Shown: one piece after another, positions 45,181 through 64,000 of the stretch
Position numbering within the stretch: position 1 is the first letter of the stretch
Layout: every line of letters starts with the position of its first letter
NCBI GenBank assembly: GCA_038816475.1
Contig: JAWBAI010000004.1
Span: 45,534 to 109,533 of the forward strand
Length of the DNA: 64,000 bases
Direction: 5' to 3'
Source: Desulfurococcaceae archaeon
Lineage (GTDB): Archaea > Thermoproteota > Thermoprotei_A > Sulfolobales > Desulfurococcaceae
The notes under the pieces: generated by a model
Seen by the model: the letters and a program-made list of their open reading frames with translations, nothing else
Databases searched by the model: none
What the model was told of the DNA's origin: nothing
Translations under genes and position numbers: made by a program

Positions 45181-45756
45181 TTAAAACCTCCTTGGAATCT
45201 TCCTAGTTGCATAGTTGATTTTTATGTAGTTGAACTTTCTGTACAATGCTGTAATAAGCATTGAAACTGTAAAAGCAGTTAGCGAGGTTATGATCGGTGC
45301 AAGTCTTATACCCCACGGTGTGTAGTTTAGTACTAATCCCACGAGAGGTACAGTAGCTAGCGATAATCCAATGGATAGAGCTGTTCTCTCCAATGGTGAT
45401 AGGTCCTCTTCGCGAGGATACAAGGCTTCAACAAGAGAGTACCCGGGTAAGAAGAGAACGTAGATCGTTCCAAGCACGTACCTAGCTGGGATCAGAGCTG
45501 GGACCTTCTCGGTTAAAAACACTACTAGTAGAGTTAGTGACGTCAGTGCGAGGGCTGTCCAAAACCAGAGTGTATATTCTAGTCTAAACGCGTAGGATAC
45601 CAGCGTTAGGGGTGGATCCGGGTCCTCGATCCTCAGCTTCTTATCTTTAACGCTTTTCCACACTTCATAAAGCACCTTGTACTTGTTAACCTTTCCACCG
45701 GCTCTTCTTCTGACGTAATCCTCCAGGGTTACAGGTTCTCTGTTCAAGTCGATCAC
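45181..45756 (-). CDS. DUF1616-like membrane protein (TM part)
   Basis: LFLPGYSLVEALYP..LSPLERTALSIGLSLA..GLVLNYTPWGI. Confidence 0.8.
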   Translation of the reverse strand: MIDLNREPVTLEDYVRRRAGGKVNKYKVLYEVWKSVKDKKLRIEDPDPPLTLVSYAFRLEYTLWFWTALALTSLTLLVVFLTEKVPALIPARYVLGTIYVLFLPGYSLVEALYPREEDLSPLERTALSIGLSLATVPLVGLVLNYTPWGIRLAPIITSLTAFTVSMLITALYRKFNYIKINYATRKIPRRF

Positions 45757-45762
45757 AGCTTG

Positions 45763-46260
45763 TTATACTAGTGGTGGAGTAATGTTCAAGTGTAGATGAA
45801 CCCATCTACCAGTATAAACCCAGCTATCGAGCCCTGTATCGTACATCCAGAGCTCGAAGATCAGTGTTACACTTGCCGGTAGCGGTTTACTGGTGTAAAC
45901 TGGGACATTAACAAGTATTGTAGTGTTCTTTTTGTTTCCTAAAACGCTGAACCACTCGGCAACAGGGCTTTCGGGTGAAGGAGTAGTCGCCGTGGGTAAT
46001 GTGCCAGTATCGCCGATCTTGTATACAACTCTGTAGTACACGGGTTTCCCCATGTAGTTCGCTATGAATATGCATAGCCTTAGAACAGTGCTGTTTAACG
46101 CTACTCTGGGTAGTTCACCTATTCTACAGTCCTCGTTCAGCAACCCTATAGCGTTAAAGGGCTCAACAACATCTGGTCTAAGCACTAATGCGATTCCCAC
46201 AGTAGATGCCACAACTGATACTGCGAGTATTACTGCGAAAACCTCTTCGTCAAGGATCAC
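45763..46260 (-). CDS. DUF1616-like exported domain protein (membrane anchor plus beta domain)
   Basis: N-terminal TM, EPFNAIGLL, IANYMGKPVYYRV, LIFELW..WVHLHLNIT. Confidence 0.65.
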   Translation of the reverse strand: MILDEEVFAVILAVSVVASTVGIALVLRPDVVEPFNAIGLLNEDCRIGELPRVALNSTVLRLCIFIANYMGKPVYYRVVYKIGDTGTLPTATTPSPESPVAEWFSVLGNKKNTTILVNVPVYTSKPLPASVTLIFELWMYDTGLDSWVYTGRWVHLHLNITPPLV

Positions 46261-46266
46261 GCGGTA

Positions 46267-46758
46267 TCACCTAATAATCCATCTTCTATGAAGCTTAAAC
46301 CAAACATAGAGGTAAACCCTTGGCAACACGAAGTAGATCAATAGTGGTATTGAAGCTAGGATGGCTACGGTTAAACCACGGGTGATCAGGATCTCAAGGT
46401 AAACTCTCTCAGCAACAGGTTTGAGGTAAACTACACGTTGTTTAGCCTCCTCGAGGTAGGCTATAGCGCTCTGGGTGTTACCTCTACTGTACTCCTCTAT
46501 AGCTTTGTTGAGTAAATCCACTACATCGTCTACGCACAATCCTCTGCTGTGCAGGTACTCGAGTTCACTCATAAGGTTCTCTATTTCATTAAGCACGCTG
46601 TTTTCAGCTTCAAGTTGAATTGCAAGCATGAAAAGCGCGATGAGCATTAAAGAAAACAGTACGGTACAGATGGATACATGTAAACTCCACATACACACAT
46701 CACCTAAAAGTTTCATACCATGAGATCTAGAAGGCTGGTTAAATACCCGGTGTAACAA
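46267..46758 (-). CDS. Hypothetical membrane protein
   Basis: TM, helical bundle (GLCVDDVVDLLNKA), C-terminal TM and W/basic tail; real start likely downstream of the track start. Confidence 0.65.
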   Translation of the reverse strand: MLHRVFNQPSRSHGMKLLGDVCMWSLHVSICTVLFSLMLIALFMLAIQLEAENSVLNEIENLMSELEYLHSRGLCVDDVVDLLNKAIEEYSRGNTQSAIAYLEEAKQRVVYLKPVAERVYLEILITRGLTVAILASIPLLIYFVLPRVYLYVWFKLHRRWIIR

Positions 46759-48448
46759 CGGTAAACCCTAGTTCCGAGAAAACGCTTGAAATTACATGGT
46801 ACTTGAATTTAAGAGCACGCGAGTGTATTAATACTACGGGTCCCTTAGTTACACCCTGAGACTCTAGGTCTTTAACAATGGCTACACCAAGAGACCTATA
46901 GTAGTCAACAATCATGCTTAGAACGCTGTCCCCCGGTATAGTTAATAGGCGCGGGCTCCCTCTATGCCAGCTCGAGTAGTCATAGGGTGTTGTCAACTTT
47001 TCCTCTTGGACTACAGCGTTTAATCCCAGTAGAACATCTATGGGTTTTCCTCTTATGAAGTACGCTTCACCACGTGGTGTAATAAGGTACAGGTAGAGCT
47101 CCGTGGTGGATTTCGGGGGTTCTTCTTTTTTGATAGTCGAGATCACATAGCTGTATAATGTTTGAAGTAGAAGGTCTAGTTCAACAGCACTTGTTGCCGT
47201 GATATCAGCTACAACTATGCTTCTGTGGGGTTGTGCCCGCTTGTCAACGTCACTACTACTGTAGACTTTAACGACCAGGTCAATAATGTCGCTTCTACGA
47301 AGGCTCTTCTTCCAATGAATATGCTTGAGGGAATCTCCTGGTGTGTACTCTCTTACACCCATGTACTCTCCTATGATTCCTCTTGTGTACTGAATAATCC
47401 TCTCTAGTAATTTACTGGGAATCTTCCACATGATTTTGACATTGAAGCGTGTTCTCAAGCGTGGTTCTCCGGGTTTCACGAGTCTCCTTATTTCTAGTAC
47501 CGGTTTTTCCTGCGTTTCTATGTCTCCTGCTATTCTAACTCCGGGTTCATCCACTTGGTACTTACCACCGGGAGCTATCACGCTAACTGGTAACGAAACG
47601 GCTCCTTCAACTCCAGGAGTAGCCGTTGAAGCTCCTGTAGAAGTTCCTGGTGTTACCTGAACAACGAGCTTGGAGATAACCGGAGGTGAAATGTATCCTG
47701 AGTATAGTGCTAGTATTTTCTCAGCTTCTCTGTAGAGTTCTGAGAACTTGGGTACAACGTTGTACTCGATTACATATGGACCGTGCTCTACGCTGGTTAG
47801 TTTTCTCGGATCTTGTAGCACAACTCTAAGGCTGTGCTTATTTGAACCAAGTCTTCGGGCGCGGATCCTAATGGTGCTTGAAGAACTGTTTTCAGCGCTC
47901 TTTGACCCGAAGAACTGGTCGTCAACTACTACGCTGTACACGAATGAACCTGGGCAATCAACATTGACTACTATGTTTACGGAGTCGTTTAAGTAAACAA
48001 TTGAACTGGGTGCTGTAACCTTTACACTAGATTTGCTTAATCTATTGTACTCGATAATTAGCAGTACAACAAGTGACGTAGCAGAAACAAGTGCAATGGG
48101 GATAGCTCTCGCGGAGAATAGGTATATAGGTGTGAGAACAAGGAGTAACGTGTAGATAAACCTCGAGGGGCTCTCTTCGCCTGAGTACAGGATATAGTAA
48201 AGTGTTGCCAGAAGAGATAATGGCGTAGCTATCGTGTAAGTGCTCAAACTAGTAGTTGATACCACGAGCACTATGCCGCTGTACATAGCGGATAGTAGCG
48301 TTATGCGCGGTCTTCTAAGCAACATGGAGAAAAGCAATACCGGTACCAGCACGAAGATCAAGTGTTCAGTATGAAAGTAAACTAGCACGCACCCTAGAGC
48401 CATGAGCACGTACACAAGTACTTCTAAAACTCTACTCCCTTGTAGCAA
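46739..48448 (-). CDS. DUF58-family protein with N-terminal TM domain
   Basis: GVREYTPGDSLKHIHWKKS..LVVK motif; in a MoxR operon. Confidence 0.85.
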   Translation of the reverse strand: MLQGSRVLEVLVYVLMALGCVLVYFHTEHLIFVLVPVLLFSMLLRRPRITLLSAMYSGIVLVVSTTSLSTYTIATPLSLLATLYYILYSGEESPSRFIYTLLLVLTPIYLFSARAIPIALVSATSLVVLLIIEYNRLSKSSVKVTAPSSIVYLNDSVNIVVNVDCPGSFVYSVVVDDQFFGSKSAENSSSSTIRIRARRLGSNKHSLRVVLQDPRKLTSVEHGPYVIEYNVVPKFSELYREAEKILALYSGYISPPVISKLVVQVTPGTSTGASTATPGVEGAVSLPVSVIAPGGKYQVDEPGVRIAGDIETQEKPVLEIRRLVKPGEPRLRTRFNVKIMWKIPSKLLERIIQYTRGIIGEYMGVREYTPGDSLKHIHWKKSLRRSDIIDLVVKVYSSSDVDKRAQPHRSIVVADITATSAVELDLLLQTLYSYVISTIKKEEPPKSTTELYLYLITPRGEAYFIRGKPIDVLLGLNAVVQEEKLTTPYDYSSWHRGSPRLLTIPGDSVLSMIVDYYRSLGVAIVKDLESQGVTKGPVVLIHSRALKFKYHVISSVFSELGFTVVTPGI

Positions 48449-49274
48449 GGTGAGCCACCACGACCAACAGTAATGTTAAAAATAGAACAGTGTATATGCT
48501 TATTGCACCCCTCTCGTACAAGAGTAGTGTTCGAACAAAGCTCAGCACCTGTAACCGCATCTCGCTTTGGTCAAGAACAACTTCTCTACCATCAGCAAGC
48601 ACAGCAAAGAAGTCTCGATTGTACTCAAAGACACTGTTTTCAAGCAGATACTCCGTGAAGAACACTAACACTCTACCTCTTCCAATTGCAATTTCAACTC
48701 CCAGGGGAAATGCACCTATGGGCTCATTGAGGTCGTATAGTCTGTTTCCATTAAAGTCAACGTAAGCAAAAACGCTACTCCACACAATTACCCTAGCAAA
48801 CCCGAAATCCCCGCTCAGAGCATAGGGCCTCTCGAAGACAGTTCTTACTTGTAACTGTGATGTATTAACTAGGATTCTATCCATGCTATCAGCGTTAAGA
48901 ACACCGTCGAGAACGTAGCCTTTAAACTCGAGAAATACACCTAGATCTCTAAGTAACTTTACTACGAACTGTGGTGAACCATAGGCGATTACTACACCTC
49001 CGCTACTCGTGAACTCGCGAACTGGTGTAACGTCTTTGAGAGAGCTTTGACGAGCTAGCACGAGGACTGTTTGCTCTGGGTTTAAACCCGTTAGCTCGTT
49101 CATAGAGTACACCGTTCTTGCGCTGAGCGAAAAATAGAATTTCGAAAGCCCATAAGCTCCATCGTTACCAATGTTATGGGGCGTTGTTGAAGGCAGTAGA
49201 AGTACTATGAGGAACCCTAGTAGAGCCCCCAGCGTGATCGATAGCAGTACAAGTCTACTCTTCGGAGGAGGCAC
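48432..49274 (-). CDS. DUF4350-like exported protein
   Basis: N-terminal TM, N..AYGLSKF, FTSSGGVVIA, IGRGRVLVF..LLENS..NRDF, VVLDQS, C-terminal TM. Confidence 0.7.
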   Translation of the reverse strand: MPPPKSRLVLLSITLGALLGFLIVLLLPSTTPHNIGNDGAYGLSKFYFSLSARTVYSMNELTGLNPEQTVLVLARQSSLKDVTPVREFTSSGGVVIAYGSPQFVVKLLRDLGVFLEFKGYVLDGVLNADSMDRILVNTSQLQVRTVFERPYALSGDFGFARVIVWSSVFAYVDFNGNRLYDLNEPIGAFPLGVEIAIGRGRVLVFFTEYLLENSVFEYNRDFFAVLADGREVVLDQSEMRLQVLSFVRTLLLYERGAISIYTVLFLTLLLVVVAHLATRE

Positions 49275-50997
49275 TTAGAACACCGTAGTAGGCTTCTTCG
49301 GCTTCTTCGTACAAAGGCTTCTTACTGGAGTAAAGGTCTCTTTCAACCAGTTGCAGAAATCTCCACAGTAGCTTTCCAAGTCCTTCAGGGATTTGATGTG
49401 AGATCTGCCTGTAGTGCTCTCTAAGGGTTTCACTCTCCCTTGGAAGTCCGAGTTTCAGTTTCTTCAGGAGATTGTAGTAGAGCATGGCTATCCGCGAACC
49501 TAAGCCCATCTCGTAGGGCTTTAGAAGAGCGTCTCTCGCAAGGTTTTCCAGCTTACGTGGAATCGCCTGAGCTTTCCTCCAGTAGCTAACAAATGTAACT
49601 ACGAAGCTTTTCTCGTGCTCGCTTACCAGAGGTATGAGAATAATTGAAATGAGAGTGAGTACTAGTAGAACGGGTATGTTGACCACGTAGACACTTAAGC
49701 TCAAGTTAAAAGCATCGTATTTTTCGCTTAGGGGTTCAACCTTGATCCGGAGATCTAAGACCTGTACTGGTAAAATACCACTGTAAACCGGAATGCTGAG
49801 AACACCTCTACCCGGGACAGTGAATGTTCTCCTAGTGTAGTCGATCATAGTTACGTAGACATCTACCTGGTCTTCGTTTACGATTAAAATTCTCACGTAT
49901 CCAAGCCATGCTATGGAGATATCGTCGGATAGTACTTTTACGCGTGGATAAACGGGTTCAACGTAGATTGGTCTAGCAAGGCAGTATTGGATAGTTTTAT
50001 CCGTAGCATCCACGCAGAGTTTTATCACGTTGTGCCCAATTCTGCAGTGTGGTGGGCAGTTCACGCTTACGGTGTTATTGCCAGGTTGTAAAGTTGTGTT
50101 CAAAACCTCTACGTCATTCATGTATAAGGTCGCATCGAACACCTCATCTGATAGCATTGTCACAGTAATGTTGTCCCTGTACCTGGTGGTAATTGGTGCA
50201 TCTAGCTGAACACGGGGTAAACCATACTCCGCTTTAAGCAGTGAAGCCAGCATGTAAGAGTTGTTTTGAAACCTAAAGTATAATGCTAACCAAACTTCCC
50301 TGGATCTCACACCGTAATCCGAGAGAAGATGTGCTCCAGGAATCTCCACCGAAATCTCGTAGTGGGTTTCGTTACGTACATAGGGTTCGTACTCAGCAAT
50401 TCTCACCATGTTTGGCCAAACGAAAACCTCAGTACTAACAATCGGCATATTTCTAGGAACTACGAGTTTAATAACGTCCCCTGGGCTGTACTTGTCTTTA
50501 TACGGTTCAATCGTAAACAGCTCTTCTAGCTCAGCTCTTTGTAGGTAGATCCTCTGTAAACGCTCCTCCAGGTTCTTAATCTTCAACTCTATTCTCACGG
50601 CAAGCGCGGAAGCAGCTGATGAATCGTGACTGCAAGCTTTAATTCTACTAGCGTAGTTTACAATGGTGTTTAATCTTGACATGATACTGTACAAAAGTGA
50701 GAGGTTCGGCGCTTCGCTCTCTAATCCGTTCACGAATCTGTAGTAGTCTAGTAGCACTCTGTAAGCTTCAACATGAAGTTCTCTGAGCCCCGGTGTAACA
50801 CTCGTATTTACTAGGTGTTTCACCATAACTTCGCCTATGGTATCACCTGTGAGAGCGTAGTCCAGTACTTTGTCTAGTAGTGCAAGATGGTACAAGCAGT
50901 CGGTGTTGAACTGTGAAGAGTGGATCATAACATCATGCGAAAACAAAGTTATCAGTAGTACTGATACGACTAGTAGTATTATCGAACACGACTTCAT
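49255..50997 (-). CDS. Exported membrane-anchored protein with C-terminal DUF4129-like domain
   Basis: Signal peptide, Ig-like ectodomain, TM, then LYYNLL..PRESETLREHY..LVERDLYS. Confidence 0.65.
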   Translation of the reverse strand: MKSCSIILLVVSVLLITLFSHDVMIHSSQFNTDCLYHLALLDKVLDYALTGDTIGEVMVKHLVNTSVTPGLRELHVEAYRVLLDYYRFVNGLESEAPNLSLLYSIMSRLNTIVNYASRIKACSHDSSAASALAVRIELKIKNLEERLQRIYLQRAELEELFTIEPYKDKYSPGDVIKLVVPRNMPIVSTEVFVWPNMVRIAEYEPYVRNETHYEISVEIPGAHLLSDYGVRSREVWLALYFRFQNNSYMLASLLKAEYGLPRVQLDAPITTRYRDNITVTMLSDEVFDATLYMNDVEVLNTTLQPGNNTVSVNCPPHCRIGHNVIKLCVDATDKTIQYCLARPIYVEPVYPRVKVLSDDISIAWLGYVRILIVNEDQVDVYVTMIDYTRRTFTVPGRGVLSIPVYSGILPVQVLDLRIKVEPLSEKYDAFNLSLSVYVVNIPVLLVLTLISIILIPLVSEHEKSFVVTFVSYWRKAQAIPRKLENLARDALLKPYEMGLGSRIAMLYYNLLKKLKLGLPRESETLREHYRQISHQIPEGLGKLLWRFLQLVERDLYSSKKPLYEEAEEAYYGVLSASSEE

Positions 50998-50999
50998 AG

Positions 51000-51260
51000 C
51001 TAGAACAACACCTCGTAGACTCTATAGATTACTATGGTTGTGAACAGAAGTAGCAGTGTAGCATTTAGTAGTTTTATAATTAAGGGTGCTTCGTGTAACG
51101 GTTTAACAATCGTGTAGGATATAAAGTAGACTAAGATGTTCACTGATACATAAGCATCAACTCTGCTTTCTCCTACCAGTAGAAGCGCGATGTTCATTAA
51201 TACAGTGAGTACCGTGTAGACCACTAGGAAGAGTTCTAGTTTCCTAACCAAACCTCTCAA
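51000..51260 (-). CDS. Small three-TM hypothetical protein
   Basis: GESRVDAYVS..YF; overlaps flanking genes in the operon. Confidence 0.7.
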   Translation of the reverse strand: MRGLVRKLELFLVVYTVLTVLMNIALLLVGESRVDAYVSVNILVYFISYTIVKPLHEAPLIIKLLNATLLLLFTTIVIYRVYEVLF

Positions 51261-51933
51261 CCCTGACGATCAGTCTTGTATAGCCGGGTAAAACCTCCTT
51301 CTCGATCAAGTGCACTCTACTCTCTCCCACGAGTTTAGCTACAGCGGTGAGTACGAGAAGCACAACCGGGTCAACAGGGTACTTGGTGTACTCAGCTAGA
51401 AGCTTACTTAACCCTATCACATCAATTACGTAGAAATCTCCTCTACGCTCAACTCGTATAATTCTACACAAGCCTAGTTCGCTGGCTAGTAATGTGTTCA
51501 AAGAGTTCTCGAGAGCGTGATCCGTAAGGTCTTCCAGTTTTTCAACATCCTGGAAGAGATCAACCGGGATCGAGAAGTACGGGAAGCCGCCTGCGAACCC
51601 CATACCTGGATTTGGTTTACTGGGGCAGTCTTTCTTAGAGAAAACCAGTAGAGTGTAACCTGCTTCTGAGTGAGCACAGATCCTATGGGTTAACAGATCT
51701 AAGTCTTCAACAACAGTGGTAGTAGCGTTTACCAAGAGCGAAGTATAGCTAAGTAGAGCTCCTACTGATGGTTCTCCAGGTATCAAGCTGTAGACCACGA
51801 AAACACCTCCCACAATACCAGTAGATGCACCAATGCCAACAAGCTCTACACTACCGGTGATTACACCGTAGATGGCTACAAACGCTGAAACCAGCAGTAC
51901 ATCTACTCCAAGGATAAGTAAGCGAGTGTTCAA
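51244..51933 (-). CDS. Hypothetical membrane protein
   Basis: Two N-terminal TMs plus soluble domain; coupled in the operon. Confidence 0.7.
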   Translation of the reverse strand: MNTRLLILGVDVLLVSAFVAIYGVITGSVELVGIGASTGIVGGVFVVYSLIPGEPSVGALLSYTSLLVNATTTVVEDLDLLTHRICAHSEAGYTLLVFSKKDCPSKPNPGMGFAGGFPYFSIPVDLFQDVEKLEDLTDHALENSLNTLLASELGLCRIIRVERRGDFYVIDVIGLSKLLAEYTKYPVDPVVLLVLTAVAKLVGESRVHLIEKEVLPGYTRLIVRVERFG

Positions 51934-52655
51934 GCTAAAGTCACCACTATCGGTTTTAATAGCAGATCCAAAGTCAGAACAGTACCTGCCAGCCTCTTGT
52001 GTCTATTGCTGAATGCGATATGATTTCTTGCGAAGTGCAGTACGAGGAACACGAGTAGAGCTTTCAACTCAACATCAACCACTGGTGATATGTATAGCAG
52101 CGCGAAGAACAGTAAAGAGGAAGCGTACTGGTAAACTTTACTTCTCGTCGCGGAAGCTACTATTGTAGACACCAGCACGTCAACTACGGTTAAGCTTAGA
52201 AGCCTCAACGTGAAGTCTACACCAAGGTACACACCTATGATTGTTGAAGCTAGAACAATAAATGGGATATGCGGCTGAAAAATCCTCTCTAGACTACTCA
52301 CATGGTAGTGGTAGTAGTACATGTACGTGAAAAGAATAGTTAGAATGATCAGTGAATCAACCGTGTAGTTAACCATGTTAGCTGGAATATTAAGAAAGTG
52401 TAGCAATGTGTGGAGAAACACTGTTGCTGTGTAAAAGGCGATCACGAGATAGTTCATCACTAATCTTCTTAGTAAAACGGTAGCGTTGAACACTATGAAC
52501 AGAGCTATAAGGAACAATTGAGGAGACACTAATAGCGTCTTGTTAAGGTAGAAGAGTATGAGGATAAGCAATGGGAGAATTAAAGATAAGGAGGTTCTAA
52601 GGTGCTCTGCGAACTCTCTGAACCAGTCGGTATAGCTACTTCGGAACAGGAACAC
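51930..52655 (-). CDS. Hypothetical polytopic membrane protein
   Basis: About 8 hydrophobic segments; overlaps moxR. Confidence 0.7.
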   Translation of the reverse strand: MFLFRSSYTDWFREFAEHLRTSLSLILPLLILILFYLNKTLLVSPQLFLIALFIVFNATVLLRRLVMNYLVIAFYTATVFLHTLLHFLNIPANMVNYTVDSLIILTILFTYMYYYHYHVSSLERIFQPHIPFIVLASTIIGVYLGVDFTLRLLSLTVVDVLVSTIVASATRSKVYQYASSLLFFALLYISPVVDVELKALLVFLVLHFARNHIAFSNRHKRLAGTVLTLDLLLKPIVVTLA

Positions 52656-53586
52656 TCTTTAACGCCTCTAATACTACGGATTCTGCTGTTACGTTCTCAA
52701 GTTCGTACTCTTCTTTCAGCTTAACTCTGTGTGCAACTACGTTTACGAATATAGATTTCACATCATCTGGTACAACGTAGTCTCTTCCATCTAGTATGGA
52801 CAGTATTCTAGCAATTCTCATTAAGTCTATTGTAGCGCGGTGCGAAGGACCGTACATAACAGCTGGATGTGTTCTTACGTAGTTTACTAGTCTAACTATG
52901 TAGTCCACGATGTACTGGTTCACCTCAACCAGCCTCGGAACAGCGTTTATGATCATGTTTATATCACTGGGAGCTGCAACGGACTCTATGGGGAGAGTTA
53001 GGATGAGATCAGATTTAGCAACGATCTCGGCTTCTTCCTCGGGTGGATTGTAGTAACTTGGTAAATTGAATGTGAACCTGTCAGCTAATGTCTCGAGTAT
53101 TCTGTAAGAGCTCACGGCGTACTTCTCGGGAACTTGTGTAGCAATAACCATGAATGGCTTTGGAATAGGGTACGTTGTACCATCCACTGTAACCTGGTAT
53201 TCCTGCATGGCTTCAAGTAATGCTGCTTGTGTTCTGGTTGGTGCTCTGTTTAACTCGTCGAAGAGCAGAATGTTGGTGAATATAGGTCCCTTAATGAATG
53301 TTCTCTCACCAGTAGGTTTGTACATGTGGAACCCTAGTATATCGCTTGGAAGTATATCTGGATGACCTTGTACTCTCCTGTACTCGCCACCAATAGCCTT
53401 CGCTAGGGCTTTTGCAAGTAGTGTTTTACCTGTGCCTGGGTATCCCTCGATCAGAAGATGTCCTCCAGCGAATAACGTTGATACAGCGTACTTCACGACA
53501 CCCCTTTTGCCCACGTACACCTTGGATACGGTATTAACAACTTCTCTCAACATGTCCCTGATCTTATCGAACTCGGTCAAGTCCAC
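52636..53586 (-). CDS. MoxR-family AAA+ ATPase
   Basis: GHLLIEGYPGTGKT, PDILPSDILG, GPIF, DELNRAPTRTQAALLEAMQE, DRF, VVPDDVK..HRV. Confidence 0.95.
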   Translation of the reverse strand: MDLTEFDKIRDMLREVVNTVSKVYVGKRGVVKYAVSTLFAGGHLLIEGYPGTGKTLLAKALAKAIGGEYRRVQGHPDILPSDILGFHMYKPTGERTFIKGPIFTNILLFDELNRAPTRTQAALLEAMQEYQVTVDGTTYPIPKPFMVIATQVPEKYAVSSYRILETLADRFTFNLPSYYNPPEEEAEIVAKSDLILTLPIESVAAPSDINMIINAVPRLVEVNQYIVDYIVRLVNYVRTHPAVMYGPSHRATIDLMRIARILSILDGRDYVVPDDVKSIFVNVVAHRVKLKEEYELENVTAESVVLEALKSVPVPK

Positions 53587-55252: not shown

Positions 55253-55475
55253 CGTGAAGATTAGGCATCAGATAGTTCGGGGATCAGTGCATAATCGGGT
55301 AAAATTTATTCAAACTTGGATTTTTAAGCTTCAACGGGTTACGCGATTGTACACCATGTATTTTGATCAGAGAAAAATGGCAACGGTGAACTCTTGGAGG
55401 TTCGGTTACCTGAGCAGTAAGTGATTTTTTAGTCCAACGATTACTATAGCTTAACATAAGAATGGGGATTCTTCA

Positions 55476-56408
55476 TTGATCAAGCTGGACGATGTTACAG
55501 TGCTTATTCCGGTTAAAAACGAGGAGAAAGCTATTGGAAAAGTCATAGACGAGGTTTTGTCCACAGGCATTCCACCGAGTCGAATATTAGTTGTTGATGG
55601 ACACAGCACTGATAGAACAGTTGAGATCGCGAGAAGCAAGGGCGTAGTTGTGGTTGAACAGGAGGGTGTGGGTAAAAGTGATGCTATTAAAACCGGTTTG
55701 AGATATGTTTCAACAAAGTACGTAGTAGTTATGGATGGTGACTACAGTTATCCCGCTAAGTACATACCGATTCTCGTAAGATTGGCTAAGGAGAAAAACT
55801 ACTCGTACATTTCAGCAAGAAGGGTTCGCGGTAGAGAAAACATACCGGTTTTGAATAGGTTTGGTAACTGGATTTTAACAAAACTGTTCAATATTCTACT
55901 CGGTGGAGACCTGGGAGATGTATGTACAGGTATGTACCTCCTTGACGTGGAAGAACTACGTGATGTTTTATTTGAAACAAAAGGATTTAGCATCGAGGTT
56001 GAACTCGCAGCGCACGTTGTTGGCTCTGCTGCACCCTACACAGAGTATGGAATCGAGTATCGAAGTAGAATTGGTAGATCTAAGCTTAGAATCGCAGATG
56101 GCTTCAAAATAGCGTTAGATATTGTTAGAATGGCGTGGAGGTATAACCCCGTAACACTACTCCTAATAGGTGCTAGTATCATAGTAGTTCCCGGTCTACT
56201 ACTGGGCGCTTACGTAGCGTACCATTACATCTTCAACGGAGTAATCTACCATGTGAAAGGAGTAGTTGCTATTGTTTTAACAGCAACAGGTTTGCAGGCG
56301 TTAATGCTAGCTATGGTTGCAACGTACCTGAAAAGAGCCGAGCTCAGGATTAGGAGACTACTTCGTGAAATCCTCAACCACAGTAAAACACGTACAATGG
56401 GTTTCTAA
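55476..56408 (+). CDS. GT2 glycosyltransferase (dolichol-phosphate glycosyltransferase-like) with C-terminal TMs
   Basis: LIPVKNEE, VVDGHSTDRT, GKSDAIKTG, MDGDYSYP, GFSIEVE, RIGRSKL. Confidence 0.92.
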   Translation: MIKLDDVTVLIPVKNEEKAIGKVIDEVLSTGIPPSRILVVDGHSTDRTVEIARSKGVVVVEQEGVGKSDAIKTGLRYVSTKYVVVMDGDYSYPAKYIPILVRLAKEKNYSYISARRVRGRENIPVLNRFGNWILTKLFNILLGGDLGDVCTGMYLLDVEELRDVLFETKGFSIEVELAAHVVGSAAPYTEYGIEYRSRIGRSKLRIADGFKIALDIVRMAWRYNPVTLLLIGASIIVVPGLLLGAYVAYHYIFNGVIYHVKGVVAIVLTATGLQALMLAMVATYLKRAELRIRRLLREILNHSKTRTMGF

Positions 56409-56434
56409 GCAATTTAACATCAAAACCAATAGTA

Positions 56435-57394
56435 GTGAGACGAGAGAACTCGGTTGAACATGCTTACTACGATGTGTTAACCATGGATAATCTTCACCTG
56501 ATCTCCGCGATAATGGTCTCGGTTCTCAGGAAAAAGACCTACTTGTACTTGCTAATAGCTTTAACTTCACCGTTGCTTCTCTCAACAGTTCTTCTATCTA
56601 TGCCGAGTTTATCCATGTTCTTAGAGGTGATGTCACAGCGCGTTAGCCCAGGTACTATGAGCCTACTGGTACGTAGTAGTGCTAGTTTAGGGGATTGTTA
56701 TCCCGTTGAGCTACTGGGCACAATTACCTTGAACAATACGGAGCTCCCCGTGCTAGTGGTTCCCGTGGATGTTTTTCTCGAAAACTTGTTTGAGTTCAAG
56801 GAAGTTTCTTATACAAGTGATTTTACATCCTTACCGCAGGAAGTGTACGAAGAACTCCAAGTTGAAAGCGTTCTTCTGAACGGCTATACAAGGCGTGTAT
56901 CACATGTTCACAGAGGTATTAACGCTGTGATTGTTCTCGGCGAGGTTTCCACTGAAAGCGATACTAAGCTGTGCAGAGTAAGCACCTCACACGTATTGAA
57001 AGAAGCGTTATTCTTCGTAGAGAGTAGCCTCATCGAGGTTTCTAAAAGATGGTTGCTACTCGTACTTCTAGCTCATACTCCACTAGTTTACGTTGCTGTG
57101 CTTAAAGCTCGTAGAGCTCTTGAAGAAGAGTTCAATGCTTTGCACAACCTTGGTGTTAGTAGAGGAAAAATACTCCTAGGATTCTCGCTGGTAATGCTCT
57201 TTGTATGCGTAATAGTCTCTGTTTTCATTGTTTCAATGTCGGTGGTGATTGTTAACTCTGTTCACAAGTTCACGAGTTTGTATTGGTTTACTCCCCAACC
57301 TTACACGAGGAGTGTGCTGTTTTACTACGTTGCTGGTTCAGTGATCCTGGTGTTTGCATCATCTCTGGTAGCGGGGTTCAAGAAGCATGTTTAG
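56435..57394 (+). CDS. FtsX/MacB-like ABC permease (divergent)
   Basis: TM, extracellular domain, three TMs with EFNALHNLGVSRGKI. Confidence 0.7.
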   Translation: MRRENSVEHAYYDVLTMDNLHLISAIMVSVLRKKTYLYLLIALTSPLLLSTVLLSMPSLSMFLEVMSQRVSPGTMSLLVRSSASLGDCYPVELLGTITLNNTELPVLVVPVDVFLENLFEFKEVSYTSDFTSLPQEVYEELQVESVLLNGYTRRVSHVHRGINAVIVLGEVSTESDTKLCRVSTSHVLKEALFFVESSLIEVSKRWLLLVLLAHTPLVYVAVLKARRALEEEFNALHNLGVSRGKILLGFSLVMLFVCVIVSVFIVSMSVVIVNSVHKFTSLYWFTPQPYTRSVLFYYVAGSVILVFASSLVAGFKKHV

Positions 57395-58484
57395 CGGTTT
57401 AATCACTCTTCTACAGTATTTCGTCACTAGAAAAACAGTGTTGTTTGTGTTCGTGCTCGGTGTTTTAGTTGTGCTCTCATCGCTTTCCCTATACGCATTA
57501 AGCTACGTGAAGACCCTGAGCAGGGTTTACGATGTGTTTTATCCACCTGATCCTACCGCCGTAGCCACCATTGTGGTGTCTAGTGATGCTTTATCTCCTT
57601 TTACCTCGATTGTTGATGCAAGAAGTATTGAGGAGAAGCTTAGTAGTTTTAACAACATTAGGGTTCGATCGATCCTTGTAACAGTAGGGTTGATCGATAG
57701 TAGACCCGTCGTAGTGTACGCAACTGATTACGCCAATAGTACATGTGCCTATGCTAGTAAAAACCTACTTGAAGCAGGTAGCTTCCTGATAGGTGACTTC
57801 ATCGCTGTTCAGTCACCATTCACTGGTGAAATCCTAGTACTGAGGATCTGCGGTGAGGGAGATAAACCCGGTATTAGTGTCAGCTACGAGAACGCGGTGA
57901 AGCTTCGAGGTGTAAAGCAGGGTTACTACAGCTTCGTAGTAGTGTACGTGTACAGTGAGGACATGGTGGACAAGGTGTTCAGCGTTCTGGTTCCCCGACC
58001 CCGCGATGATTACACCGAGAGGTTAATTCGAAGAGCGTTTCTCCTCCTAACACGTAGAGGAGAAGATGTCGAGGTTGCTCACGCAGAGACTCCTACTGAA
58101 ATTTACTTAGCTAAGCTCGGCATTCATAGGGAGTACATTGTATACTTAGCTTATGCTGTTGGTGTTGCAACTCTTGCAAGTCTTCCATTGATGAGTATAG
58201 GAGTAGTACTTCATCTTGAGAGCCGACTTAGAACACTCATAAGCATGGGAGCTTCACGCGGTGTTATCCTTGCATCACTACTAGTGTACTTTCTTATCGC
58301 TGTTGCTGTTTCAGTTGCGCTTTCATCATTGTTCTTTCACCTGGGTTTAGCACCTCCATTAGTGTTTCTTGACCATGAAATCCCCCTTACTGTTGGTATT
58401 CGTGAAGTCATCACTGTAGCTATTGTCAACTGCACGTTACTATCAGTGGGTGTATTTACAGGGTTGAGAAGACTTGAGAGCTAA
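57387..58484 (+). CDS. FtsX/MacB-like ABC permease
   Basis: TM, extracellular domain, three TMs with RTLISMGASRGVI. Confidence 0.75.
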   Translation: MFSGLITLLQYFVTRKTVLFVFVLGVLVVLSSLSLYALSYVKTLSRVYDVFYPPDPTAVATIVVSSDALSPFTSIVDARSIEEKLSSFNNIRVRSILVTVGLIDSRPVVVYATDYANSTCAYASKNLLEAGSFLIGDFIAVQSPFTGEILVLRICGEGDKPGISVSYENAVKLRGVKQGYYSFVVVYVYSEDMVDKVFSVLVPRPRDDYTERLIRRAFLLLTRRGEDVEVAHAETPTEIYLAKLGIHREYIVYLAYAVGVATLASLPLMSIGVVLHLESRLRTLISMGASRGVILASLLVYFLIAVAVSVALSSLFFHLGLAPPLVFLDHEIPLTVGIREVITVAIVNCTLLSVGVFTGLRRLES

Positions 58485-59955
58485 TCACGTGGTGTTATTC
58501 ACAGTAATCGTTGCATTTACTGTTCTTACTAGATTAATTCCCGTGCTTTACACTGGATACCCGTTTTCCAACGATGTGTGGGTTCTAGTTAGAATATCAG
58601 AGTACTTATCCGAGAACCCGAGTACACCAGTATACTCTCTCGTTGAAGTCTTCAGTTACCATGTCGAATACCCTGCTTCAATCCTGGAATCAATAGTGTA
58701 CTCCAGTATAACTGGTTTACCAATTGCAGAGTTTTACAGACATGTTGGAGTGGTAGTTTTATCGCTGGCAATGGCTTTCTCGGTTTACTCCTTCGCGGGT
58801 TTTCTAGCGGTCAACTTCAAACCACGTGTTTTATCAGTGCTTGCACTATCGTTGATCCCATCCTTTACTATTTACACATCAAGCTACTTAAAGGAAGTTT
58901 ACGCGCATGCACTAATACCTCTTCTGCTATGTGTACTTCTTCAACCTCGTGAACTAACGGTCTCTCGGCTTCTAACAGTACTCGTTTTATCAGTAGCAGT
59001 TGTTCTGAGTCATCCGCTGGCTAGTGCAGTGCTTTCAGCTACTCTGGTAAGCTACTTGTTTATCGATTACACCGGTTCACTTGTAAGTAGGAAGCAGAGA
59101 GTTCGTTTTGATTCCACGCGTATATTGTTGCTGGTACCAGTCTTGCTCTTTACCACGTACTCTCTTTTTGTTACTTCCCCGGTAGCCGTGTCATTCAAGG
59201 ACACGGTTATTCTAGCAGTATACGCGTTGTTCACCTACTCATCGTACACTCTACTAGGTGATGTTGCTTCAGGTGTTTTAATAACAATAGCTCTTGCTCC
59301 AGCTCTAGTTGCTCTCATCTACACGGTTACAGCACCTGTTGCACCAGTTCTTCTAGCTCTATTCGTTGTACCCATAGGTTTGTTGGTAGCATACAAGACT
59401 GGGTTAGAGGAGGTTGACAAGATTAGAAATGCTTGCTTATTACCAGTGGCTACACTAGTTCTCTACGTTTTAACCTACATGGTTGAAGCTTTAAGTATAA
59501 TCCACAGAATTGCTAACTACGTTGTCTATGCGTTTATACCTGTGTGTATTGGAATAGGTGAAAAAAGTAGAAAAGTGCACTACTCCTTACTCCTCTTACT
59601 CACACTGTTCACCGTTACACTGAGTACATTAACTGCTCTCGGTGGTAACCCTTACACGTTTTACTGGAGGTATGGTGATTACGACTTTGTTCTAAGAGAG
59701 CTTACTATTGCGGTTGATCACAGCGTCGTCATCTACGGTGATCCAAAGTACAGCTACATGGTAGAAGAGGTTAAGCAAGTAGATTACTCCGTAGCTAGGG
59801 ATTTCTGCACTACACGAGGATTCCTTGCTGTTTCAAGGGATAACTTTCACTACGGTGTTCCGGTTACACCACTCGACTACATTAGATTACCTGGTAACCT
59901 GGATCAGTGCAGAAGCAGAGTTTTCGACACGGGCTATGTCTATGTGTATAGTTAA
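58474..59955 (+). CDS. Polytopic membrane protein, GT-C-like (lipid-linked sugar transferase candidate)
   Basis: About 12 TMs; acidic residue after TM1 (PFSNDVW), EYP, KE, SHP motifs; soluble C-terminal domain ending RVFDTG. Confidence 0.55.
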   Translation: MRANHVVLFTVIVAFTVLTRLIPVLYTGYPFSNDVWVLVRISEYLSENPSTPVYSLVEVFSYHVEYPASILESIVYSSITGLPIAEFYRHVGVVVLSLAMAFSVYSFAGFLAVNFKPRVLSVLALSLIPSFTIYTSSYLKEVYAHALIPLLLCVLLQPRELTVSRLLTVLVLSVAVVLSHPLASAVLSATLVSYLFIDYTGSLVSRKQRVRFDSTRILLLVPVLLFTTYSLFVTSPVAVSFKDTVILAVYALFTYSSYTLLGDVASGVLITIALAPALVALIYTVTAPVAPVLLALFVVPIGLLVAYKTGLEEVDKIRNACLLPVATLVLYVLTYMVEALSIIHRIANYVVYAFIPVCIGIGEKSRKVHYSLLLLLTLFTVTLSTLTALGGNPYTFYWRYGDYDFVLRELTIAVDHSVVIYGDPKYSYMVEEVKQVDYSVARDFCTTRGFLAVSRDNFHYGVPVTPLDYIRLPGNLDQCRSRVFDTGYVYVYS

Positions 59956-60628
59956 ACTCGTAGATGTCTGGGTTAAGTACGAAGGAGAATACGTGCTACG
60001 CGGTATTAACCTAGAGGTATGTGAAGGCAACGTTGTCGTAGTTAAAGGTAGAAGTGGTGTAGGAAAAACCACGCTGGCAAAGGTTCTTGCACTACTTTTG
60101 AAACCAGAGAAGGGTAGAGTACTTTACAGTGGAGAAGATGTTTGGAGTCTAAGTGAACAGTTCAGAGCAGGAATCAGGCTTAGAGACATCGGGTATGTTG
60201 ACCAGGAGCACGTGCTTCTACCTGAGTTGACTGTCTGGGAAAACATTGAATTACCACTAAGGATCATGGGTGTTGAGAAAAACGACAGAAAACGGAGAGT
60301 GAGAGAAATCGTTGAAGTTCTCGGCTTACTGGGACTTGAGGAAAGATACCCAGGTCAGCTATCGGGTGGTCAAAGACAAAGAGTTGCATTAGCTAGAGCT
60401 CTCGTTAAGAAACCCAAGCTCCTAGTACTCGATGAACCCTACTCTAGCTTAGACGATGACACGCGGAGAACAGTTCACAGCTACATTGTTAACTACGCGA
60501 AGCAGGTGAAATCAGCAGTAGTAGTAACAACAGTTGATCTCTACGTGGATTTCAACGTGGACAAGGAGTACACGCTTGAGAACTCATTGCTAACCGAGAC
60601 AAAGAGAATAAGCCTTGAACAACGTTAA
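59936..60628 (+). CDS. ABC transporter ATPase (LolD/FtsE-like)
   Basis: GRSGVGKTT, IGYVDQ, LSGGQRQRVALARAL, LDEP; H-loop reads TTVD. Confidence 0.92.
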   Translation: MSMCIVKLVDVWVKYEGEYVLRGINLEVCEGNVVVVKGRSGVGKTTLAKVLALLLKPEKGRVLYSGEDVWSLSEQFRAGIRLRDIGYVDQEHVLLPELTVWENIELPLRIMGVEKNDRKRRVREIVEVLGLLGLEERYPGQLSGGQRQRVALARALVKKPKLLVLDEPYSSLDDDTRRTVHSYIVNYAKQVKSAVVVTTVDLYVDFNVDKEYTLENSLLTETKRISLEQR

Positions 60629-60770: not shown

Positions 60771-61805
60771 GTGGACTTTGTGAACAAGCTAAGAGTAATA
60801 GGTGTACTCGCATTATTACTAGTTCTACAATATCCACTAGCAGTACACAGCGGTGAACCCGGTTTCGAAGCATTAACACTATCCACGTCATCCCCGATAA
60901 CAGTTGATGGTGATCCCTCGGATTGGGGAACCTTCGACTGTCCCAGTTTACCGATAGATGGTAACTACGGAGTTTATTACTATAGAACGATCAACGGCGT
61001 TCAGCAGTGGATATGGTGTGATGCTATCGGAGACGAAAGAACAGACTTCGCGAACCCGGACAAAAGAGTTGACTTAGTTCAATTCAGGATAACCGGTGAC
61101 AAGAACTTCATATACATGCTCTTCATATTCAACGATATGAGCGGCTTCAACATAGGAGACAATGGAGGGACCTTCATTGCTGTAACCATAAACGTGAATG
61201 GAACAGGAGTCAATGAAGACTTTGCCGGTTACTCAGACACAAAAGTTCACGTTGACGCTAAGTGGAAGTACCAGGTTGTTGTGAACCTAGCAGACAGCAG
61301 ATATAGTGGTCAAGGCAAAAGATCTACTATTGACACGCTACACGCGAACTGGGGTGCAATATTCTACCTCGTGGATGAAGGGTGGAGTTTCAAGACTGAT
61401 ATTCGAGCACAAGTGGGAGTAAACCTTGACAAAAACGCTGTGGAGATCAGGATACCATGGGAGATCATTGGTGTACCTAGTGGACCGGTCTACTACTTGA
61501 GGTTATCCTTGATTACTGCTCGTGGATGGAGCGACTATGATAGAAATCTTGGAAATACCTGGGACATAAAAGATCAAAGTAATGCCTTAGACGCTATGAC
61601 CACTGCTGGACCCAACACTTGGGATGAAGTATATGATGGTAGAGTAGACTACTACGCTGATGTCTACTTCACTACTACACCACCCTACGTACCCATACCT
61701 GAACCCTGGTTCACCAGCATAGCAGTAGCCTCGGTAACAGTGGGTAGCATAGGACTAGGAACCATCCTGAAGAAACGGAAAAACAAAAACGAAAAACCAG
61801 AGTAG
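60771..61805 (+). CDS. Secreted DOMON/CBM9-like protein with PEP-CTERM-like C-terminal sorting signal
   Basis: Signal peptide; ITVDGDPSDW, DAIGDE, VDLVQFRI, VEIRIPW; C-terminus TTTPPYVPIPEP-WFTSIAVASVTVGSIGLGTIL-KKRKNK. Confidence 0.75.
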   Translation: MDFVNKLRVIGVLALLLVLQYPLAVHSGEPGFEALTLSTSSPITVDGDPSDWGTFDCPSLPIDGNYGVYYYRTINGVQQWIWCDAIGDERTDFANPDKRVDLVQFRITGDKNFIYMLFIFNDMSGFNIGDNGGTFIAVTINVNGTGVNEDFAGYSDTKVHVDAKWKYQVVVNLADSRYSGQGKRSTIDTLHANWGAIFYLVDEGWSFKTDIRAQVGVNLDKNAVEIRIPWEIIGVPSGPVYYLRLSLITARGWSDYDRNLGNTWDIKDQSNALDAMTTAGPNTWDEVYDGRVDYYADVYFTTTPPYVPIPEPWFTSIAVASVTVGSIGLGTILKKRKNKNEKPE

Positions 61806-61902
61806 AGTAAACTAAGAAGCTTTTTCCTCTTTAATACACTTTGCTCAGCTATTCTCGAGGCTTAGTTAAGATAATATACTGAGATCACGTCATAGCTAGG
61901 TT

Positions 61903-63057
61903 GTGGAAAGCGGGGTAGAAGCCGTGGAAGCATACATAGTGCATCTTTTCACGGTTTGCGGTGGTAGTGGAAGAGTTAGTTTAGAAATAGCGAGTGTACT
62001 GCGTGAAAAAGGGTTCAGAGTTACGTATGTAACCAACAGCGAAGATAGTATGAAGAAGTGTGCTGAACTCCTCCAGTTACCGGGAGACTACGAGGTTATA
62101 GAAGTAAAGAGCATGTTCGAGAGAGCACTAGCTCTTACTGGTAGGTTCATACGGTACAGAAGACTAGTGCTTCTCACAAAGGCGTACGAAAAACTTGCAT
62201 CAATGGGAGTAGATGGTTTAACAGTAGACACGGATACGAACACAGCGTTCAACGTAGACATTTCCTACATACACTACCCAGCAGTACTAAGCACAGTTAA
62301 ATCCAACATGCTCCACTGGAAACTGTACAACTGGCTTGTTGCTAGAAAAGCACGAAGCATGATGGGTAAACCAAGGCTTGTTCTCGCGAACAGTTCTTGG
62401 ACAGCCAAGTTGATCAAGGAAACCTATGGGTTAAACGCCGAGGTCCTTCATCCACCGGTAGACGTAGACTACTACTCGTACGAGGGTGGAGGAAAGGAGA
62501 GGATAATTGTTACTACCTCGAGGATTACACCCGAGAAGAATCTTCATCTCCTACCACGCGTTGCATCCAAGCTACCAAACTACGAGTGGTACCTAGTAGG
62601 CTCTACTGGTTACTCGAGAATAGAAAAATACCTTGCGAAGAGAATAGTAAATAGAATTGAGCATGAGAAGAGAAAACACAACGCCTGGAACTTCCACGTA
62701 GTCATGGATCTTCCTAGAAGAGAACTCAGAGAACTACTACAAAGAGCAACATTCTACGTACACCCCTTGTTTCCAGAGCACTTTGGTATAGCAGTTGTCG
62801 AAGCTATGTCAGCTGGAGCTATACCGGTAGTATACAGAGACGGAGGTGCATGGCTAGATGTAGTTTCAGATGTAAGCATGGAACTCGGCTACATGGAACT
62901 CGATGAAATCCCGGTTGTTGTTAAGAGAATCGAAAGCAACACGGATAAACTAAAGAGACTAAGAGAAGAAGTAATGAGGAAAAGCAAACAATTCAAGCGA
63001 GAGGTGTTCAGAGAGAGATTCGCAGTAATCTTAGAAAACTTAGTTAAGGGTGACTGA
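61903..63057 (+). CDS. GT4 glycosyltransferase (Alg11-like)
   Basis: CGGSGRV, YIHYP, ANSSWT, LHPPVD, SRITPEK, EHFGIAVVEAMSAG. Confidence 0.92.
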   Translation: MESGVEAVEAYIVHLFTVCGGSGRVSLEIASVLREKGFRVTYVTNSEDSMKKCAELLQLPGDYEVIEVKSMFERALALTGRFIRYRRLVLLTKAYEKLASMGVDGLTVDTDTNTAFNVDISYIHYPAVLSTVKSNMLHWKLYNWLVARKARSMMGKPRLVLANSSWTAKLIKETYGLNAEVLHPPVDVDYYSYEGGGKERIIVTTSRITPEKNLHLLPRVASKLPNYEWYLVGSTGYSRIEKYLAKRIVNRIEHEKRKHNAWNFHVVMDLPRRELRELLQRATFYVHPLFPEHFGIAVVEAMSAGAIPVVYRDGGAWLDVVSDVSMELGYMELDEIPVVVKRIESNTDKLKRLREEVMRKSKQFKREVFRERFAVILENLVKGD

Positions 63058-64000
63058 GACGAGCAAGATTTCATACTTAATACATGTATCCTATGTCTGC
63101 GGTGGCGGGGAGAAGCTTAGTCTTGAAATAGCGAGGATACTATCAATGGCAGGTTACAAAGTCAACTACGTGGTACCTGATTCAAGAATGCTTTACCATT
63201 GCATGGACTTGTTTGATATGCATGGAAACTACAAGGTAATCGAGGTTAAGAGTTTACGGGAAAAGCTCTTATCCTTAACTGGAAAGTTCAGAAGGCTTAG
63301 AAGGCTTTTAATAGCCCGCAAGTTAGCCCTGTACATAGATGGCTTAGAAGGATTGAAAATTGATACAGGAACAGATATTCCCCTGGGAAGCATAGATATA
63401 TCGTACATTCATTACCCGATACTCCTTGATAGTAAAGAAAGTAGATCCACAATGTGGAGGCTGTACAAATGGTATCTTAAGTCTTTACAAAGCAAAGTAC
63501 TTGGTAAACCCACGATCGTTCTCACAAACTCTACGTGGACTGCTAAGCTGATTGAAGATTCATATGGTGTGAATGCAAAGGTTCTTCATCCACCTGTTGA
63601 TGTTGATTACTTCAAGTATGATGGAACATCAAAGGAAAACATAATAGTTACAATTTCGAGAATCAACCTGAACAAGAGAATACATTTGTTACCAAAGATC
63701 GCGAAGAAACTTGAAGACTATGAGTGGTATTTGATCGGTTCCACATATGGATATGGTTCAAGTAGAGCTCTAAGAGAACTTGAGAAGCAGATAAGAGTAC
63801 ACAACGCAAGTAACTTTCACGTTCTTACAAACTTGAAGAACGATGAGCTGAGAAAACTGCTCATGAGAGCGAAGTTTTATGTTCATCCTCAGTACCAGGA
63901 GCATTTCGGTATAGCAGTTGTTGAGGCTATGTCGGCTGGAGCTGTTCCAATAGTGTACAGGGATGGTGGTGCATGGGTGGACGTTGTCTCGAATATTAGT
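63050..64000 (+). CDS. GT4 glycosyltransferase, tandem paralog (truncated by window end)
   Basis: GTG 63050: MTETSKISYLIHVSYVCGGGEK..YIHYP..TNSTWT..LHPPVDVDY..EHFGIAVVEAMSAG; not in ORF track. Confidence 0.9.
   Translation, partial: MTETSKISYLIHVSYVCGGGEKLSLEIARILSMAGYKVNYVVPDSRMLYHCMDLFDMHGNYKVIEVKSLREKLLSLTGKFRRLRRLLIARKLALYIDGLEGLKIDTGTDIPLGSIDISYIHYPILLDSKESRSTMWRLYKWYLKSLQSKVLGKPTIVLTNSTWTAKLIEDSYGVNAKVLHPPVDVDYFKYDGTSKENIIVTISRINLNKRIHLLPKIAKKLEDYEWYLIGSTYGYGSSRALRELEKQIRVHNASNFHVLTNLKNDELRKLLMRAKFYVHPQYQEHFGIAVVEAMSAGAVPIVYRDGGAWVDVVSNIS

Follow-up and report, generated by a model that had tools for sequence, protein, structure and literature searches.

What would an exosortase-like enzyme be doing at the head of an operon built around a MoxR-type ATPase, in an archaeon that has no outer membrane, and which proteins might it act upon? 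This question is raised by a 64,000-nucleotide stretch of a Desulfurococcaceae archaeon genome (assembly GCA_038816475.1, contig JAWBAI010000004.1, positions 45,534 to 109,533; hereafter, the window), which carries two divergent gene sets parted by a 223-nt spacer (55253-55475 of the window). The left set, on the reverse strand, starts with an exosortase-family gene (53564-55252) and runs through a MoxR gene into a series of membrane-protein genes; the right set, on the forward strand, encodes a family 2 glycosyltransferase (GT2), an ABC ATPase with further membrane proteins, a secreted protein (60771-61805), and tandem family 4 glycosyltransferases (GT4). A first-pass annotation had seen here a single surface pathway in which sortase, glycosylation, exporter and MoxR module act together; the open reading frames (ORFs) that it listed all exist, its observations as a whole are partly confirmed, and its interpretation is partly supported by the analysis described below. 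We favor, with a probability of roughly 55%, the reading that the left set is one operon joining an unclassified exosortase of bacterial type to an archaeal MoxR/DUF58/DUF4350/DUF1616 machinery, with the sortase anchoring exported proteins by a route set out further below. That machinery was predicted earlier to be a secretion or surface-assembly complex and has never been characterized. The eleven genes of the left unit, from 55252 down to 45181, are spaced by -23 to +6 nt, in agreement, for the left unit, with the initial description of mostly overlapping operons, and a 124-nt gap separates the last of them (45181-45756) from the next operon.

By sequence criteria, the 562-aa product of 53564-55252 (-) belongs to the exosortase/archaeosortase superfamily and lies outside every named subfamily model. 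It passes the cut-offs of both Pfam Exosortase_EpsH (PF09721; 49.1 bits vs. 25.7) and the NCBIfam exo_archaeo signature TIGR04178 (34.6 bits vs. 23), but, unlike the bacterial exosortases, it reaches none of the subfamily cut-offs (XrtA-Z, CrtA-C, ArtA-F, and thaumarchaeosortase), the best score being that of XrtA (34.4 bits vs. 208). That is, the first-pass call of an exosortase-family gene stands, and the enzyme does not fall in an already characterized subfamily. The best sub-threshold NCBIfam models of the window sortase and its relatives are bacterial (XrtA, 8TM_EpsH, XrtD, XrtW, and XrtV), and the Art models gave no match at E<0.01 for the window sortase. The subfamily scan of the wider family covered 57 of the 150 relatives listed, and each of the 23 full-length sequences among those scanned (P0089 to P0174) stayed below all subfamily cut-offs. 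The close homologues number 24, those with names being all Desulfurococcaceae, Zestosphaera or Thermosphaera, and all 24 share an architecture of about 550 aa. The triad noted at the outset, C199, R251 and H272, is indeed intact and nearly invariant in an alignment of 23 sequences. An exhaustive profile search recovered 235 representatives of the family at E<=1e-3 and 84 at E<=1e-30, about 100 of the representatives being full length, and among 109 wider full-length relatives the Cys is present in 96, the Arg in 103, and the His in 89. The relatives that lack the Cys include P0025, P0081 and P0094; in several of these relatives the His is missing as well, and they may be inactive paralogues.

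Hydropathy (10 hydrophobic segments) and an AlphaFold2 (AF2) model (pLDDT 80.6, pTM 0.80) give the sortase the same topology: eight core transmembrane (TM) helices, a ninth TM helix, a beta-rich domain of ~160 aa, a tenth TM helix and a basic tail. The positive-inside rule would place both the Cys and the His, as well as the extra domain, on the outer face of the membrane. The extra domain has a conserved core, R-x-H-T-x-Q-x-C...Q-G-Y, which is similar to the core of EpsI, H..xCLxxQG[YW]; an alignment of the domain by hhalign with four EpsI domains taken from distant matches reached a probability of 79% and an E value of 1.5e-5 over 52 columns only. The NCBIfam models for XrtD and XrtW are themselves ~490 positions long, and the XrtD model reaches into the C-terminal domain in one relative (P0135), but when the full sortase family was aligned by hhalign with a single XrtD-like protein, the catalytic core aligned and the C-terminal domain did not. 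The resemblance of the extra domain to EpsI is thus suggestive but not established. Weak START/Bet-v-like structural matches of the same domain were set aside and not used.

Compared with known systems, the window sortase shares with the bacterial PEP-CTERM exosortases (EpsH/XrtA, XrtD, and XrtW) a polytopic membrane core with the Cys/Arg/His triad, and the presence of an additional C-terminal domain recalls the fusions of EpsH with an EpsI-like region that were noted by Haft (2006; PMC1569441), in the portion of that article dealing with them. It differs from the bacterial enzymes in having a second TM helix after the extra domain and in having a MoxR module rather than exopolysaccharide (EPS) genes as its operon partner. 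It also differs in its host, since the sections of the same article on the distribution of PEP-CTERM describe it only in bacteria with an outer membrane and not in archaea, whereas the present host is an archaeon that lacks an outer membrane. With the archaeosortases (ArtA/PGF-CTERM and ArtC/PEF-CTERM), it shares the TIGR04178 signature and an archaeal, single-membrane host, but it has no Art match at the level given above, and the local motif is PEP rather than PGF or PEF. ArtA cleaves and lipid-anchors surface proteins, with cleavage established in Haloferax, and a 2018 review describes archaeosortases, in its part on their occurrence, from a subset of Euryarchaeota (PMC6098224); the pairing of ArtC with PEF-CTERM is as cited in PMC5244752, in the lines on that pairing.

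The genes that follow the sortase are not new in themselves, since they correspond to the arCOG01314 "putative novel secretion system" described, in the part of the article on it, by Makarova, Galperin and Koonin in 2015 (PMC5898192). As in that system, the left unit holds MoxR (COG0714), a DUF4350 protein that has both a signal peptide and a C-terminal TM helix, a "cell surface protein" of large size, proteins of pfam07760 (DUF1616), and small proteins of two or three TM helices, and it has a candidate for the DUF58/von Willebrand factor A (vWA) protein (its Pfam match being sub-threshold); with a DUF4350 protein, MoxR and pfam07760 proteins in one operon, it is a member of the system. Gene order and sizes match those published for Desulfurococcus mucosus (from MoxR to the DUF1616 pair) and Thermogladius 1633, these arCOG equivalences being drawn from gene order, length and Pfam rather than from sequence comparison. 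What sets the left unit apart is the exosortase and a 7-TM protein added at its head, the D. mucosus listing being without the 7-TM gene. The listings of five genes on either side for Thermogladius 1633 and Thermosphaera aggregans in the same source end at MoxR, i.e., one gene before the slot of the sortase, and the text of the article contains no mention of exosortase or archaeosortase. In our literature search, exosortase and MoxR occurred together in no paper, although further papers or supplements may bear on the point; it likewise found none linking archaeosortases to Desulfurococcales and none with archaeosortase and PIP-CTERM together, with the same proviso. The MoxR part is the system of 2015, and it is the exosortase-MoxR coupling that is new.

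This coupling is conserved. A survey that took a single genome from each species gave 15 sortase loci, of which three (L003, L014, and L015) were too short to judge, and MoxR adjoins the sortase in 11 of the 12 evaluable ones (L001, L002, L004-L011, and L013). These loci come from Thermosphaera, Thermogladius, Ignisphaera and Desulfurococcaceae metagenome-assembled genomes (MAGs), with sortase identities of 35-97%. The core of the operon down to DUF4350 is kept in eight loci (L002, L004, L005, L007, L008, L010, L011, and L013), and the sequence ends too early to judge this in two more (L001 and L009). That is, the physical link between the sortase and the MoxR/DUF58/DUF4350/DUF1616 module that was proposed at first holds across genera. 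The arrangement is not fixed in every detail: the order is reversed in L013, with MoxR first and the sortase second, and in L006 a homologue of the secreted 60771 protein, on the other strand, directly follows MoxR in place of the module genes. The genes upstream of the sortase vary between loci. In one of the short loci, a Zestomicrobium tamdykulense contig (L014:10001-10204), only the first ~70 sortase codons are present (71% identity) and an unrelated P5C-reductase gene on the other strand comes next; this remnant may reflect either loss of the entire operon or a join made in assembly. L003, with the same upstream genes as L014, keeps sortase residues 4-335 up to the contig end.

A candidate substrate is encoded nearby, at 60771-61805 (+), probably starting in fact at 60780. 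The protein consists of a signal peptide, a beta-sandwich, a TTTPPY linker and a tail that reads ...PPYVPIPEPWFTSIAVASVTVGSIGLGTILKKRKNKNEKPE at the C-terminus, in the order TTTPPYVPIPEP, TM helix, KKRKNK, as the first-pass annotation had described it and as is characteristic of bacterial PEP-CTERM proteins ([IV]PEP, TM helix, basic cluster). Its gene stands alone, with flanking gaps of 142 and 97 nt, and bacterial PEP-CTERM genes too stand apart in the genome, according to the relevant part of Haft (2006; PMC1569441). Among 46 homologues plus the query, 32 of 47 have P[IV]PE[PS] ahead of a C-terminal TM helix and basic end; another nine carry xPE[FL] and three VPFF in the same place, and in the remaining three the tail is different or missing (one of these is truncated and one has a type IX secretion system (T9SS) tail domain). 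The PEF-type or other tails sit on the more distant members of the family, in likeness to the ArtC systems, and different recognized tail types on one mature domain are what an exchangeable sorting signal looks like. The PEP-CTERM model TIGR02595 (cut-off 16 bits), applied to 11 members with P[IV]PEP, passes two (18.4 and 18.1 bits) and finds one sub-threshold (12.9), and the PEF-CTERM model is sub-threshold in one of seven PE[FL] members. In a tail survey of 387 ORFs of at least 80 aa from the window and the loci, unrelated proteins beside the operon were also tailed, with PVPEPW next to MoxR in L013 and PVPISEP in L010; the survey is not an unbiased background because all loci were picked around the sortase. 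A pairing of the sortase with substrates of the 60771 type is, overall, plausible.

The AF2 model of the 60771 product (pLDDT 87.3) weakly suggests a carbohydrate-binding-like beta-sandwich of the CBM9/glucodextranase-C kind: the best match in the PDB by fold was glucodextranase 1ug9 (E 5e-4, TM-score on query 0.37), followed by the CBM9 structure 1i82 (1.2e-3). A PDB sequence search with the family was empty. A comparison of the 60771 family with the Glucodextran_C protein of L005 gave an hhalign probability of 2.7% and was discarded. The L005 protein itself (L005:16-2778), a GH57 plus Glucodextran_C protein of 920 aa whose N-terminus is cut by the locus end, is encoded ~7 kb upstream of the sortase. 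Its C-terminus reads ...APAPEITG, then a TM helix, then KRKRTP, and it could be a further glycan-active protein anchored at the surface. The first-pass annotation had called the 60771 product glycosylated, which is a guess since it has a single N-x-S/T sequon.

Under the reading that we favor, Sec would export proteins whose tail consists of P-[IV]-P-E-P followed by a TM helix and then a basic cluster, the 60771 product being the local example, and the tail would hold them in the membrane. The exosortase would then cut at or near the PEP motif via a thio-acyl intermediate and transfer the protein to an acceptor, which could be a lipid or else a glycan or protein of the surface, and the MoxR-driven complex encoded downstream would help to assemble the released proteins or hold them in the cell envelope. 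Several results weigh against this reading. The catalytic Cys is missing in 13 of the 109 sortase relatives; the EpsI likeness is weak, with no TIGR02914 match at E<0.01; and no solved structure matched the sortase, a PDB sequence profile search being empty and Foldseek giving nothing at E<=0.001. On the substrate side, TIGR02595 finds nothing in the window protein and in eight of the 11 P[IV]PEP members, and only one such tail occurs within the 64-kb window. In addition, the sortase of L012, on a complete Thermogladius chromosome, has an intact triad (32% identity) and no MoxR nearby, and the Desulfurococcus mucosus operon from MoxR to DUF1616 has no adjacent exosortase, a small divergent gene lying upstream of MoxR instead.

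The last two observations, together with the reversed order in L013 and the replaced genes in L006, are also what would be expected if the sortase and the MoxR module were neighbors by lineage history only, with the exosortase processing P[IV]PEP proteins alone and the arCOG01314 machinery being unrelated to it. We consider this somewhat unlikely, since the adjacency survives down to 35% sortase identity in several genera, the two genes usually overlap or nearly abut, and the junction stays fixed where the upstream neighbors vary freely. If, on the other hand, the tail were a plain membrane anchor and the exosortase-like protein had some other role, e.g., in handling an envelope polymer, the loss of the Cys in a minority of relatives would be readily accommodated, but conservation of P[IV]PEP in 32 of 47 family members goes far beyond the need of a simple anchor, the motif is replaced in distant homologues by other recognized types of sorting signal, the triad is retained in most sortase relatives, and ArtA cleavage has precedent in Haloferax (PMC6098224, in its account of that enzyme). 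This makes the plain-anchor explanation the most doubtful of those considered here.

A broader alternative, closest to the first-pass interpretation, is one integrated pathway in which the GT2, the ABC exporter, the 493-aa membrane protein encoded with it, and the GT4s serve to glycosylate the sortase substrate or a matrix polymer and to export it. Consistent with such a pathway, EpsH genes of bacteria are located amid EPS genes (PMC1569441, in its part on gene neighborhoods), and the GT2/ABC cassette lies divergently beside the sortase operon in the window, in the same-species locus L001 and in L011, and 3.3 kb from MoxR in L013; one distant permease-like gene (24% identical) follows the DUF1616 genes in L005, and a GT2, a GT4 and a Wzx-like flippase occur within 7 kb in L002. 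Yet the genes upstream of the sortase in L004, L006, L007, L009 and L012 are unrelated housekeeping genes, the glycosylation genes of L002 are interspersed with Trm56 and OTCase, the 60771 product has its single sequon, and the FtsX and GT-C identities are without any model match. On this evidence, we regard the integrated pathway as improbable, and the coupling of glycosylation and export to the sortase system is unproven. Because few loci have the cassette and the upstream genes vary, we treat it, with the GT4 genes, as a separate envelope-glycan unit that is sometimes nearby, which is more likely.

It is intriguing to extend the favored reading of a sortase-MoxR operon one step further, and to suppose that the arCOG01314/MoxR machinery, which is widespread in archaea, is a sortase-fed apparatus for surface-protein assembly, in which, in these Desulfurococcaceae, the exosortase encoded by the first gene of the operon would cleave PEP-CTERM-type tails and pass the proteins to a MoxR/vWA/DUF4350/DUF1616 complex that builds or remodels the envelope. 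We offer this only tentatively and think it rather unlikely as a whole; if true, proteins would be anchored here by a pathway that has no characterized counterpart, and no PEP-CTERM-type system would have been seen before to work in a cell lacking an outer membrane. The operon is of interest on more modest grounds as well. Exosortases are poorly characterized biochemically, and had not been analyzed experimentally as of the 2018 review (PMC6098224, in its remarks on these enzymes), while the arCOG01314/MoxR system is counted among the conserved archaeal proteins of unknown function (PMC5898192, in its section on them; PMC6393860); the operon gives each of the two a testable partner. The candidate substrate is small and, by its model (pLDDT 87), well folded, so that its tail could be used as a reporter. 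Finally, PEP-CTERM-type sorting would be extended to Thermoproteota, which calls the old tie of the signal to outer membranes into question.

As for the individual genes of the left unit (all on the reverse strand), the MoxR-type AAA+ ATPase (52636-53586) is secure (AAA_3 150.7 bits, AAA_lid_2 66.6 bits), directly follows the exosortase gene as first described, and overlaps it by 23 nt. The next gene (51930-52655) encodes the polytopic protein of about seven TM helices, which belongs to no known family (no Pfam or NCBIfam match) and has invariant residues N57, D159, Y188, P191, R210 and D230 in an alignment of eight orthologues. It is followed by genes for a 229-aa membrane protein conserved in eight loci (51244-51933; about arCOG11910 by position and size) and for an 86-aa protein with two TM helices by hydropathy (51000-51260; about arCOG11497 by position in the gene order). 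The 580-aa protein of 49255-50997 has the layout of a surface protein: a signal/anchor helix leads into a large ectodomain, and a TM helix at residues 441-459 connects this to a cytoplasmic end. The protein occupies the slot of the "cell surface protein" arCOG02487/03665. Its cytoplasmic end appears DUF4129-like, as initially proposed, with a match in one of nine family members (E 0.0057) and an Atlas score of 0.86 against DUF4129/Ig-domain clusters, which we take as a lead only.

The order of the following genes was given incorrectly at first and is, in fact, DUF4129-like, DUF4350, DUF58-like. The DUF4350/arCOG01314-type protein (48432-49274) has its ectodomain between a signal peptide and a C-terminal TM helix; the window protein itself has no Pfam match, and the assignment holds through its orthologues, five of six of which match DUF4350, two above cut-off. 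Immediately ahead of the C-terminal TM helix and its basic end, the orthologues have a conserved [PT]-[RQ]-G-V-[SA]-x-I-Y (L004:8493-9359, L005:15922-16797, L008:5864-6736, and L010:5965-6837), the window copy being ERGAISIY. The product of 46739-48448 is a membrane protein probably of the DUF58 (vWA) type, the usual partner of MoxR: Atlas scores against DUF58 clusters are 0.96 and 0.93, and four of five family members show the N-terminal motif, while the Pfam match, confined to the first ~25 profile positions (E 0.003-0.12), is below cut-off. A 163-aa protein with two TM helices by hydropathy (46267-46758; about arCOG11424 by position in the gene order) comes next and had been omitted from the first gene list. 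The two DUF1616-like genes at the end of the unit differ in support: 45181-45756, the last gene, encodes the N-terminal membrane part with four TM helices (profile 6-118; 111 bits), and 45763-46260, with a signal/anchor helix, covers the C-terminal part (profile ~153-286), is sub-threshold here (E 0.004) and is supported by its orthologues, three of three of which reach the cut-off (31.6-34.7 bits vs. 31.6). One DUF1616 (pfam07760) profile is therefore split over two genes in swapped order (45181-46260), as also in L005, L007 and L011, and the pair parallels the arCOG02884/arCOG02887 pair of the published listings.

In the right set (all on the forward strand), the GT2, the ABC ATPase and the tandem GT4s were called correctly at the outset, each scoring above the curated cut-offs of its family model. 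The GT2 gene (55476-56408), divergent from the exosortase gene, encodes an enzyme of the polyprenyl-phosphate-sugar synthase (AglJ/DPM-like) type with two C-terminal TM helices (Glycos_transf_2 86.9 bits); the AglJ model gives 186.9 bits, below its cut-off of 325. The two membrane proteins that follow (56435-57394 and 57387-58484) were first named FtsX-like permeases; by hydropathy, each has one TM helix, a large loop and three TM helices, a topology that fits the MacB/FtsX type, but six members gave no Pfam, NCBIfam or PDB-sequence match for an FtsX domain and PDB profiles yielded chance matches only, and we leave their family unassigned. Nor did the GT-C-like label of the 493-aa polytopic protein (58474-59955) find a match in Pfam, NCBIfam or PDB sequences, the PDB profile again giving chance matches only; the protein has a conserved FSxDxW loop after its first TM helix and eight homologues, all "hypothetical" and without a Pfam domain. 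The ABC ATPase (59825-60628) is firm as such (ABC_tran 117.7 bits); the LolD model gives it 157.7 bits, below the cut-off of 307.75. Its ORF has an N-terminal extension of ~37 codons (59825-59935), which makes for an overlap of 131 nt with the 493-aa gene; translation probably begins at an internal Met near 59936. The tandem GT4s (61903-63057 and 63050-64000; Glycos_transf_1 and Glyco_transf_4) close the set, the second running off the window.

The rest of the window is an ordinary crenarchaeal chromosome, with RadA, ThrRS, topoisomerase VI, PCNA, eRF1, and pyruvate:ferredoxin oxidoreductase, and the nearest public DNA is the Desulfurococcaceae MAG contig L001, of the same species (protein identity 97-99%). 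Directly downstream of the left operon (37016-45056, reverse strand) lies an Mrp/Mbh-type membrane complex, with a NiFe-hydrogenase-like large subunit, 30-kDa and 20-kDa subunits, a ferredoxin, MnhB/E/G-like proteins and antiporter-like subunits. At 28948-31726 there is a type IV filament locus, in which the gene for a T2SSE-type ATPase precedes that for a 434-aa protein lacking any Pfam match, and an Lhr-type helicase gene is found between two HerA/DUF87-type ATPase genes (1629-3281, 7107-9923, and 10014-11921 for the three genes).

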